Assembly (NCBI GenBank): GCA_041687575.1
Contig: JAWLBS010000005.1
Location: 1 to 48,960 of the forward strand
DNA: 48,960 bases
Origin: Phycisphaerae bacterium
GTDB taxonomy: Bacteria; Planctomycetota; Phycisphaerae; UBA1845; JANYLN01
Reading direction: 5' to 3'
Shown here: piece after piece, positions 31,629 through 34,600 of the stretch
Position numbering within the stretch: the stretch's first letter is position 1
Layout of the letters: every line of letters starts with the position of its first letter
The notes under the pieces: generated by a model
Told to the model about the DNA's origin: nothing
Databases searched by the model: none
The model's input: the letters and a program-made list of their open reading frames with translations, nothing else
Position numbers and translations under genes: made by a program

Positions 31629-34600
31629 CTACAGCGCCTGCTTTTTCTCCAGCTGCATGTTCAGGCCCAGGCCGCGGATCTCGTTGCACAACACGTCGAA
31701 CGAAACCGGCGTGCCCGCCTCGAGCGTGTTGGCGCCCTTGACCATACTCTCGTAGATCTTGGTGCGCCCCTCCACGTCGTCGCTCTTGACCGTCAGCAGC
31801 TCCTGCAGGATGTGGGCCGCGCCGTATGCCTCCAGCGCCCAGACCTCCATCTCGCCGAACCGCTGGCCGCCCGCCCGCGCCTTGCCGCCCAACGGCTGCT
31901 GGGTGATCAGCGAGTACGGGCCCGTGCTCCGCGCGTGGATCTTGTCGTCGACCAGGTGGACCAGCTTCAGCATGTACATCTGCCCGACCGCCACCGGCTG
32001 GTCGAACGGCTCGCCCGTCCGCCCGTCGATCAGCGTGATCTTGTTGCCGACCGGCATCTCGACGAGAATCTCCTCTGGATGGGGAACGCGCGTAGCTATC
32101 TTGTGCTCCTCAACTGCTTCAAGCAGGCCTACCTGCAGTCCCGCATCTACCTGATCCTCGCTCAGGCTCTCAATCTCTCGTGAGAAGCTTCTGACCCAGT
32201 TAGTGTTCCCAAGATGCACTAGGAGTCTTTCCTTCAAACCTTGGACATCCGGGTTCTCGCTCTTCTTCTCGCCCGCAAGTCCGATATAGCCTTCGGCGAC
32301 GCCTCCCGTCTCTTTGTTACGGAAGAAGTAGATCGCTTGCCGATTCTCTGTCTTGTTGAAATTCGCGCGAGTGCTGCTCGTCCATCCATTCCCATCATTG
32401 ATCTCGTCGATGCACTTCTTGAGAAGCTTTCCGAGCTTGCCCCTATCTCGATCAAGTCGCGCTCTGGCCTCCTCAACGCGCCGCCGTCCTTTCGCACCCT
32501 TGGGGCTTGCATTGAATCTAGGAAGATGTGCCCTCTCGGGTGAACGCGCTTCAGGGTCAGGATAATGCGCTATCAAGGCTTCCTCGAGTTGCCTCAGCTC
32601 ATCTTTGGAAAGCGCGCCACCATCATCCGTGTATACGAACTTGAACTCACTAAGCCAGTTATCAAGCCCCTGCTGCACGAACGCCCTAGGGTCTTCCTTT
32701 GCTAGCGATAGCATCTGCTCCCACTTCGCAGCCTTACTGTCACCAGAACGGGAAAGACCTGCCAGTTCAGCGTTGCGAGCACGCACGTGCTGGTTCGCCT
32801 CCTCCATGCACGCCGCGATCTCTTCCTCGCTCGCCCCGTCGAACACCGGCGTGAGGGCCTGGAAGCCCAGCACCGACGCCGCCCACCCCAGGTGCGTCTC
32901 GAGGATCTGCCCGACGTTCATACGACTGGGAACGCCCAGCGGATTCAGAATGATGTCCACCGGCGTGCCGTCCTCGAGGAACGGCATGTCCTCGACAGGC
33001 ACGATACGGGCGATCACGCCCTTGTTGCCGTGCCGGCCGGCCATCTTGTCGCCGACGCTCGTCCGCCGCTTGGTCGCCACCCAGACCTTCACCATCTCCA
33101 GCACGCCGCTGGGCAGCTCGTCGCCCCGCTTCATCTGGGCGACCTTGCGCTCCCGCTCCTCGTCGATCTCCATCAACCGCGGCCAGTACTGGCGGGCGAT
33201 CTCCATCGCCGGCTCGCGCATCGCGGCGGGCTTGATCCACCGCAGCGCCCCGTCGACCATCTGCTCCTTGACCTTGTCGATCTGCTCGAGGATCACGTCG
33301 TCGTCGTCGCTCTTGCCGACCTTCTGGCGGGTCTCCGGGTCGATCATGACGTTGCCGGTCACTTCCTCGATCGCCAGGACCATCTGCTTGAAGACCCGGA
33401 CCATCTTGCCGTTGCACTCGGCCTCGAACTCCTTGACCTTCCGGGCGATATCCTTCTTCTGCTCGTCGCTCATCTGCGTGCGCCGGCTGAACCGCTTGGC
33501 ACCGATGACGATGCCCTCGGCACCGGCCGGCATCTCCAGCGAGTCGTTCTTGACGTCCTCGCCGGCCCGCCCGAAGATCGCGTGCAGCAGCTTCTCTTCC
33601 GGCGTCAGTTCGGTCTTGCTCTTGGGGCTGACCTTGCCGACCAGGATGTCGCCCGGCCCGACCCGCGTGCCGATCTGCACCACGCCGTTCTCGTCGAGGT
33701 ACCGCAGGGCCCGCTCCGAGACGTTGGGAATGTCGCGGGTGAACTCCTCGCGACCCAGCCGCGTCTCGCGGACCTCCACCTCGTAGTCCTCGATGTGGAT
33801 GCTGGTGAAGGTGTCCTCCTGGACGAGCCGCTCGCTGATGGTGATCGCGTCCTCGAAGTTGTACCCGTCGTAGATCATGAACGCGACCAGGATGTTCTTG
33901 CCCAAGGCCAGTTCACCCCGATGGGTGCTCGGACCGTCGGCGATGATCTGGCCCTTTTTCACCTTTTCGCCGATCCGGACCAACGGCCTTTGATTCAGGC
34001 AGGTCCGCTCGTTCAGCCCGTGGAACTTGCGCAGCTCGTACTCATCCACGTCGTCGATGGCGATCCGCTGCGCATCCACGTAGGTGACCTTGCCGTCCTT
34101 GCGGCTGCGGACCACCATGCCGCTGTTCTCGGCAACCACCCGCTCCATGCCGGTGGCGATCACCGGCGGCTCGGCCACCAGCAGCGGAACGGCCTGACGC
34201 TGCATGTTCGAACCCATCAGGGCCCGGTTCGCATCGTCGTGCTCCAAGAACGGGATCAGGCTCGCCGAGACACCCACGGTCTGCCGGCCGGACACGTCGA
34301 TGTACGCGATCTCCTTGCTGGAGACCTGGCTCATCTCGCCGTAGGCCCGCGCCAGCGCCGCGCCCTCGCGGAGCTTGTACTTGTGGCCGTGGCCGCCGCC
34401 ACGCTCGCGACGCATCCGCGTCAGGTGCGCGGCCTTTTCCTCGATCTCGGGCAATCCGTTGCTGTAGGCCGGCCAGTCGATCGCGTCCGGCGGCGAGAGG
34501 ATGCTCCGCATCTCCTCGTCGGCCCGCAGGTAGGCGACCTCGCCGTTGACCTTGTTACGCTCGACCTTGCGGTACGGCGTCAGCATGAAACCGTAATCGT

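Follow-up and report, generated by a model that had tools for sequence, protein, structure and literature searches.

A putative circularly permuted GIY-YIG nuclease module inserted in frame in RNA polymerase beta of a Phycisphaerae bacterium

We analysed a stretch of 48,960 nucleotides from a Phycisphaerae bacterium (GenBank assembly GCA_041687575.1, contig JAWLBS010000005.1, positions 1 to 48,960 of the forward strand; the whole stretch is called the window here), in which rpoB, the gene for the beta subunit of RNA polymerase (RNAP), contains a foreign in-frame block of about 0.7 kb. The block was acquired recently, in frame, in the only rpoB gene of this genome, and the protein segment it encodes is very probably a circularly permuted, UvrC-like GIY-YIG nuclease domain, according to profile alignments and a predicted structure. 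Such modules form a previously undescribed family. In the sets that were searched, its members sit exclusively in surface loops of the two largest RNAP subunits, beta and beta', of bacteria of the class Phycisphaerae. The best reading, in which we place about even confidence, is that of a horizontally mobile, unspliced, permuted nuclease domain that is tolerated in an essential gene.

The foreign block in rpoB

The source assembly, labelled G000 here, consists of 522 contigs with 90.7% completeness, and a search of this genome found one rpoB only. The host gene and the block are as follows.

31629..36152, minus strand, rpoB (RNAP beta), an open reading frame (ORF) of 1507 amino acids (aa) with Pfam Rpb2 domains
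32070..32783, minus strand, foreign in-frame block, the putative permuted GIY-YIG-like module, RpoB aa 1124-1361, 238 aa

Pfam found Rpb2 domains 1, 2, 3, 45, 6 and 7 in this protein. About 245 residues separate [20 protein letters not shown] (which ends in ACMEEAN) from [16 protein letters not shown] in G000 RpoB, while the two relatives from the same genus, G001 and G002, have a loop of 25 residues at this site, giving a net gain of about 220 aa in G000. The RpoB of G001, with its 25-aa loop, is otherwise close to that of G000 (86-92% identity). The block is absent from RpoB of the same-order relatives (40 of 40, including the two from the same genus), whose alignments cover query residues 1 to about 1139 and then about 1361 to 1507. 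When the insert protein was searched against the genomes of these 40 relatives, nothing real was found, and the two weak matches were spurious. The block is exactly in frame and stop-free, and a real insertion in rpoB is practically beyond doubt. The initial annotation, which a model had made from the sequence, described about 230 extra in-frame residues at 32067-32783; this was confirmed, with edges that agree within 3 nt.

In G002 (G002:C1:884705-888570, L017), rpoB is spread over several open frames (281, 753 and 528 aa), and one TAG interrupts a match. These breaks look like frameshift errors of an assembly with 4 contigs and 73% completeness, and the insertion site is readable and empty.

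The base composition also changes at the block. The G+C content of third codon positions (GC3) is 0.59 in RpoB aa 1133-1362 versus 0.93 in the rest of rpoB, and when it is counted per 10 codons, values of 9-10 outside drop to 3-7 between aa 1121 and 1360. In windows of 300 nt, the GC content is 0.53-0.57 in the block versus 0.64-0.68 around it. The composition switches directly after aa 1123 and back before aa 1362, which corresponds to positions 32070-32783, and the block is the lowest-GC kilobase of the whole window.

Two long antisense open frames on the plus strand (27231-32183 and 32787-36230; 1650 and 1147 aa) lie over rpoC and rpoB. Long antisense open frames are expected in GC3-rich genes, and both of these break exactly over the low-GC block, which provides an independent visual marker of foreign composition. 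Besides, positions 32775-32798 at the upstream edge of the block form an imperfect 24-nt palindrome centred on CACGTG, whose arms are 80% complementary and which may be due to chance.

Module anatomy and GIY-YIG homology

The module can be divided into five segments, in which residue numbers such as E67 and Y152 follow the insert numbering and the helices and strands are those of the AlphaFold model described below.

32649..32783, minus strand, N-terminal helical lead-in, aa 1124-1168, which begins with ~16 residues in place of a part of the host loop (model helices 14-30 and 32-43; residues 1-14 have low confidence)
32511..32648, minus strand, first half, aa 1169-1214, with strand FKFVYT, the Glu helix (E1190 = E67) and PRFN (N1214 = N91), proposed to correspond to the C-terminal half of a GIY-YIG domain (strand 3, Glu helix, Asn; model strand 46-51, helix 60-72)
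32355..32498, minus strand, basic helical linker, aa 1219-1266, with the invariant W134 (model helices 96-112, 116-129 and 139-143)
32208..32339, minus strand, second half, aa 1272-1315, with AIYFFR (Y1275), YIGLA (Y1289) and LKERLLVH (R1309, H1313), equivalent to the GIY-YIG N-terminal half (model strands 150-155 and 166-170, helix 183-190)
32070..32204, minus strand, C-terminal helix and tail back into RpoB, aa 1317-1361 (model helix 194-218; predicted local distance difference test score, pLDDT, below 50 for residues 214-238)

All motifs quoted in the initial annotation are present, namely FKFVY at aa 1170, [17 protein letters not shown] at 1211, AIYFFRN at 1273, YIG at 1289 and LKERLLVH at 1306, while the spacer between GIY and YIG, given there as 8 residues, is actually 9 residues long.

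The second half has GIY-YIG homology at the level of sequence profiles. Comparing the module family with 20 canonical GIY-YIG domains of relatives by hhalign gave an E-value of 3.9e-6 for the second half (positions 4-37), and the comparison with a more diverse profile of 20 UvrC sequences gave 2.1e-10. The Pfam family PF01541, whose gathering cut-off is 22.6 bits, matched the copy of genome G354 with 24.2 and 25.6 bits at positions 1-36 of 78, and the copy of G712 with 17.6 bits, below the cut-off, at positions 3-38. The GIY strand AIYFFR is followed after 9 residues by the YIG strand, and each strand contains an invariant Tyr, as is characteristic of the superfamily. Another superfamily feature is found in the helix after the YIG strand, where R186 and H190 align to the L-R-x-R-V-x-x-Y/H helix of UvrC. 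It turned out that the GIY-YIG profile matches all stop at about position 38; one more helix follows and then the module rejoins the host protein.

The first half was also aligned to the UvrC profile by hhalign, at template positions 51-86 of 86, with a weak E-value of 0.01 and a score of 16.1. This alignment pairs strand with strand, Glu with Glu and Asn with Asn of UvrC, and none of the 40 column-shuffled controls reached the score (maximum 12.7). The first half contains neither a GIY nor a YIG motif; taken by itself, its nearest named clusters in the ESM Atlas were GIY_YIG_2, Eco29kI and GIY-YIG (0.83-0.88), which serves as a lead only.

Read along the sequence, the order in the module is strand 3, Glu helix, Asn, helical linker, GIY strand, YIG strand and Arg/His helix. 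The canonical GIY-YIG order is therefore not kept, because the Glu/Asn half precedes the GIY-YIG half, and the new ends fall at what is the helix 2/strand 3 junction of a normal domain. As the initial annotation had suggested, the profile was aligned both as is and re-permuted, and only the re-permuted form spans the whole domain. In natural order, 36 columns align to the UvrC profile (template 3-38, score 58.2), which stops at position 38 of 86; with the halves swapped, 66 columns align (template 5-76, score 62.9, E 1.2e-11), reaching 76 to 86. The score of 62.9 was reached by none of 40 controls with a shuffled first half (maximum 59.8), and a reversed first half gave 54.9. With a less diverse profile setting, the permuted global score of 37.4 is barely above the maximum of the controls, 37.2 (reached by 0 of 20).

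The most conserved positions support the same assignment of residues. In all 20 copies of the module known to us (see the next section), E67, P88, N91, W134, Y152, Y166, G168, R186 and H190 are invariant, and the mean column identity is 25% in an alignment of 16 copies. Among them are all six defining active-site residues of GIY-YIG domains (E67, N91, Y152, Y166, R186 and H190). AlphaFold with a 16-sequence alignment predicted one compact domain (pLDDT 83.9; predicted template modelling score, pTM, 0.79), with three strands that are three or more residues long (46-51, 150-155 and 166-170) and helices where a permuted GIY-YIG domain needs them. In this model, two extra helices of the linker connect the original C- and N-termini of the domain. 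Both the overall fold and the nuclease activity of the module are predictions. The single-sequence AlphaFold run on the insert gave an uninformative model (pLDDT 43).

Several results weigh against the identification. The G000 copy has no PF01541 match in Pfam at E up to 10, and no family of Pfam, NCBIfam or PHROGs is over threshold for the G000 insert. With less diverse canonical profiles (a 20-row mixed GIY-YIG profile and its 11 near-identical UvrC rows), the first half gives E-values of only 0.13-0.5. Foldseek, which aligns in sequence order, found no GIY-YIG or other fold for the model (best E 1.7 in PDB and 0.97 in BFVD). The interpretation of the initial annotation is partly supported: its core holds, with statistical support for the second half, a weaker match of the first half, and an alignment that covers the whole domain after re-permutation. 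Besides, a profile of five copies found only chance Hsp70 matches among PDB sequences (E 0.057).

The UvrC N-terminal domain (PF01541) is the closest known system. Its GIY strand, YIG strand and Arg...His helix match the module with statistical support, its C-terminal half matches the module strand, Glu helix and P-x-x-N weakly but at the right place, and the module profile retrieves UvrC genes in genome searches. The differences are the swapped halves, the extra helical linker of ~50 aa with its invariant Trp, the lack of a Foldseek match, and the location, which is inside RNAP and not N-terminal in a repair protein. G000 also has a canonical GIY-YIG domain over the Pfam cut-off (G000:C22:25050-25289, L057), which is 76-89% identical to the UvrC-like rows of relatives. 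Since this ordinary UvrC-type gene is kept, the RNAP module is no replacement for the usual repair nuclease.

A module family in RpoB and RpoC

The module is not a one-off, and its family occurs in both RpoB and RpoC. Altogether, the searches gave 20 homologous copies from 18 hosts. Each of them sits in frame in one of these two subunits, at one of about eight sites in surface loops, and the modules are ~200-280 aa long. The copies were found through a word-based search of RpoB-sized proteins, six-frame genome searches, a metagenome scan and a profile search of shorter proteins; the genome samples contain one genome per species and are partly incomplete. The sites were assigned by mapping the flanks against RpoB and RpoC of G000, whose rpoC is given first.

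26991..31412, minus strand, rpoC (beta'), ORF of 1473 aa, no module here, reference for mapping the RpoC insertion sites
RpoB N-terminus (G000 numbering), 2 copies
RpoB ~264-279, 6 copies
RpoB ~343-350, 1 copy
RpoB 1123/1361, 3 copies (G000, G469 = L039, and G712)
RpoC 512/524, 2 copies
RpoC 545/581, 1 copy
RpoC 680/727, 2 copies
RpoC ~1087-1091, 3 copies

In E. coli numbering, these sites correspond to ~13, 330-343, 410-417 and ~1195-1200 of beta, and to 514-524, 545-576, 677-719 and 1030-1083 of beta'. Several of them fall within or next to the E. coli insertions (SI1 in beta and SI3 in beta') and the rim helices.

In a sample of 401 species genomes of the class Phycisphaerae, the module was found in 14, one of which is G000. 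In a phylum-wide sample of 401 genomes, the full module is present in G000 and G354 only; the other 9 matches are weak, cover the second half of the module only and lie in open frames of 536-818 aa, and the one of them that was inspected is a uvrC gene adjoining uvrB. Two hosts carry two modules. The word-based search of RpoB-sized proteins yielded P0003, a metagenomic RpoB with copies at the N-terminus and in the lobe region (aa ~12-269 and ~497-743), which belong to different deep clades of the module tree, and G558 has one module in rpoC (L052) and another in rpoB (L056). For all copies the frame is open through both junctions, and none of the 15 genome matches has a stop inside.

No free-standing copy was found in a word-limited single-sequence search of proteins of 130-417 aa, and a profile search of proteins of 105-534 aa (also word-limited, with the best 8000 candidates scored) returned only P0004, a fragment of RpoC. 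The scan of viral contigs found no module copy, and that of genome contigs matched only the G354 contig. The weak matches L002, L003, L036 and L037 were rejected, because they proved to be a coiled-coil kinase or to lie off frame in GC-rich DNA.

Among close relatives, some carry the module at a given site and others have that site empty, as the allele search proposed in the initial annotation had envisaged. This is the case for G000 compared with G001 and G002, and for the families of G469 and G712, whose copies stand at the same site as that of G000. The G469 copy is absent from G798 of the same genus and from the other members of the G469 family (12 of 12). Of the 12 other members of the G712 family, 11 lack the module, and G804 carries one, though at another site. 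What's more, GC3 is below that of the host gene in all copies tested (16 of 16), by 0.02 to 0.35, with the largest gap in G000. Such a deficit in every tested copy points to repeated recent arrival and not to a retained adaptive trait.

A module tree was built from 19 copies. The three copies at RpoB 1123/1361 come from three host families and form one clade with support of 99/98, although they are at most ~41% identical. Homing into a conserved site would be expected to give such a clade. At the other sites, the copies are not monophyletic. For example, L047 (RpoB ~270) and L055 (RpoC ~680) are sisters across the two subunits (support 95/91), and so are the second copy of P0003 (P0003b, RpoB ~270) and P0004 (RpoC ~1090; support 99/98). 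Close module relatives at different sites or in different subunits indicate that the module also changes its place among the permissive loops of the two subunits. Based on these sequence comparisons, the module is probably horizontally mobile; whether its spread would be driven by its own predicted nuclease is a question on which our confidence is evenly divided.

The constant arrangement of the halves bears on how the module arrived. The initial annotation had offered, as one mechanism, a circle that opens inside its nuclease gene at each integration. This is unlikely, since nearly all copies start at the half with the strand and the Glu helix. The idea of a circle opened at each insertion was rejected because the match of the hidden Markov model (HMM) begins at the same half in nearly all copies and only G354 looks re-permuted.

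In the rpoC copy of G354 (L044/L035), the segment with the helix and strand 3 seems to be at the C-terminal and not the N-terminal end, whereas P0004, at the same RpoC site, has it at the N-terminal end. The best local alignments of the C-terminal end of G354 with P0004 and with the second copy of P0003 coincide precisely with this segment and score 32 and 30, values that 10 and 18 of 500 shuffles equal (p ~0.02-0.04). The arrangement could be a second permutation, for instance through a tandem double insertion followed by trimming, as far as these alignments suggest.

Explanations and comparison with known systems

In the reading that we prefer, the module would be a selfish homing endonuclease that is kept as a protein domain and not removed as an intron or intein. 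The permutation would let the domain hang in a host loop without splicing, with its ends together. The nuclease, translated within RNAP, would cut or nick an empty rpoB or rpoC allele, repair off the occupied allele would copy the module into the empty one, and occasional ectopic events would carry it to other permissive loops of beta and beta'. Of the mechanisms in the initial annotation, an unspliced mobile nuclease in a surface loop fits best. A more specific and more tentative proposal, which we hold slightly less probable than not to be right, is that the module represents a new mobile class, a domain-level homing element that is permuted, unspliced and hops between beta and beta', perhaps also with a role in transcription-coupled DNA incision.

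This picture of a homing element has difficulties of its own. No target-site duplication and no terminal (inverted) repeats flank the G000 block, and no separate DNA-binding domain is evident in the module. The third-position identity to G001 is 0.35 in aa 1101-1120 versus 0.50-0.85 in the other listed windows of 20 codons except the block edge (aa 1121-1140, where the nucleotide identity to G001 is only 0.40), and this dip beside the block speaks for a co-conversion tract only very faintly, if at all. Insertion sites show hardly any clustering on the module tree (11 changes, with a minimum of 6 and a shuffled mean of 12.2; 43 of 200 shuffles are as low), so classical site-specific homing would need frequent retargeting. 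All 20 copies are intact, and the absence of degenerate ones is unlike the decay cycle of homing endonucleases, although the HMM search may miss decayed copies. Besides, the restriction of the module to RNAP at many sites also fits selection for tethering.

Such tethering is the core of the strongest rival, which we consider a serious though rather unlikely explanation, namely a working RNAP-tethered nuclease. Here a permuted UvrC-like domain would have been recruited and exchanged by gene transfer because it is useful to have an incision activity that travels with the elongating polymerase. Such an enzyme might act on stalled or lesion-blocked complexes by nicking their DNA, as a built-in transcription-coupled repair, or it might cleave foreign DNA or the DNA of R-loops. 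It would then hardly matter which loop carries the domain, and many sites would be tolerated. Selection for tethering, and not for a DNA target, would give the pattern of the census, in which each of the 20 copies is in one of the two large subunits, the copies are spread over about eight sites, and close module relatives differ in site or subunit. The complete set of catalytic residues in every copy also agrees with it, and so do the hosts with double copies, G558 (RpoB and RpoC) and P0003 (twice in RpoB), and the nearest canonical relatives by module profile, which are UvrC N-terminal domains (9 weak matches in 401 genomes, one verified) and not intron endonucleases. On the other hand, a useful enzyme is hard to reconcile with a copy in only 14 of 401 class genomes, mostly in a single species per family, with GC3 under that of the host in 16 of 16 copies, and with the ordinary UvrC-type GIY-YIG gene that G000 retains. 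The selfish and the RNAP-tethered readings are compatible with each other and not exclusive.

The remaining explanations deny either the activity or the persistence of the block. A catalytically dead, lineage-specific structural insertion, in which a decayed nuclease decorates the RNAP surface in the manner of BEAN/HABAS (BBM2/SBHM), would agree with the several sites in or next to E. coli insertion regions, with the lack of a Foldseek match in PDB or BFVD, and with the tolerance of beta and beta' for large lineage-specific insertions, as described in a survey (PMC11515920). It is nevertheless improbable, because six active-site residues are invariant in 20 of 20 copies at a mean column identity of 25%, and because the distribution is patchy rather than lineage-wide and the composition foreign. 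An intein or intron, which would be removed from the protein or the messenger RNA and leave mature RpoB without the block, is recommended by the mere form of an in-frame foreign block in a conserved essential gene, and non-allelic intein sites are reported from eukaryotic RNA polymerase genes (PMC1635734). It is very improbable here. Pfam contains no intein or Hint family match for the whole RpoB at E up to 1 or for the insert at E up to 10, and the splice-junction residues are missing, since none of the junction residues of the block, taken from the translation, is Cys, Ser or Thr, and the block does not end in His-Asn. When 31500-33300 was scanned with Rfam at E up to 1, no model of a group I or II intron matched and the two weak matches obtained were unrelated, and an intron would not need the frame that is kept open across both junctions in all copies. 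Finally, an assembly or binning chimera, with the block joined into rpoB by the assembler, hardly deserves credence. Although G000 is in 522 contigs and 90.7% complete, and none of the public sequencing runs that were searched had more than 0.07 of the sampled words, the block is precisely in frame without a stop, the very site is also occupied by homologous blocks in G469/L039 and G712, two independent assemblies, and others are in frame elsewhere in the RNAP of 15 more hosts.

Compared with GIY-YIG homing endonucleases of the I-TevI type, the module resembles them in its patchy presence at a fixed site of an essential gene, its foreign composition and its occurrence at the same site in unrelated hosts. 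It differs in having neither an intron nor its own reading frame and in being translated within the host protein, and also in the permuted catalytic domain, the lack of a recognisable DNA-binding domain and the frequent changes of site. Unspliced selfish insertions in frame are known from the Rickettsia palindromic elements and from LAGLIDADG genes in fungal mitochondrial rps3, which likewise are mobile DNA translated with the host protein. The former are short repeats without enzymatic function and the latter encode a LAGLIDADG enzyme within an organelle gene, in contrast to a putative permuted GIY-YIG domain in bacterial RNAP. Inteins, including those of RNA polymerase, share with the module that they are selfish, sporadic, in-frame insertions in conserved essential proteins, at several sites of RNA polymerase subunits. 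They differ from it by the Hint domain and the splice-junction residues, which the module lacks; the block must therefore stay in the mature protein and is confined to permissive surface loops.

Some module sites lie in or beside E. coli insertion regions. The module also resembles BEAN and HABAS as a large domain in surface loops of beta and beta'. According to the excerpted text of the 2024 survey, BEAN in beta and HABAS in beta' were inserted a few times in evolution, and they are beta-rich and lineage-wide, whereas the module is alpha/beta, nuclease-like, species-patchy and compositionally foreign; the terms nuclease, mobile and GIY-YIG do not occur in this survey (PMC11515920). In full-text literature searches, neither a GIY-YIG domain inside RNAP nor a permuted GIY-YIG domain was found as the subject of a paper, judged by title or by the beginning of the abstract.

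If our reading is correct, this would be the first circularly permuted GIY-YIG domain, and a nuclease built into bacterial RNA polymerase, which is absent from the passages of the recent insertion-domain survey consulted here (PMC11515920). It would also reveal a third lifestyle for a homing-type element in an essential gene, toleration as a domain, besides introns and inteins. Because the permutation brings the ends together, it provides a rationale for insertion into a loop and would be a natural example of a rule of protein engineering. A polymerase-tethered nuclease would offer a new handle on transcription-coupled repair or defence. In practice, rpoB and rpoC serve as phylogenetic markers and in length or quality checks, and both uses are affected by a patchy mobile block of 0.7 kb.

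For the rest, the window contains a usual tRNA cluster and rpoB-rpoC on the minus strand. At about 34375-34475 of the window (RpoB aa ~560-592), G000 has ~33 further extra residues, where the matches of most order-level relatives break at 559/593. G001 aligns straight through this segment, which looks like an ordinary loop expansion at the genus level.

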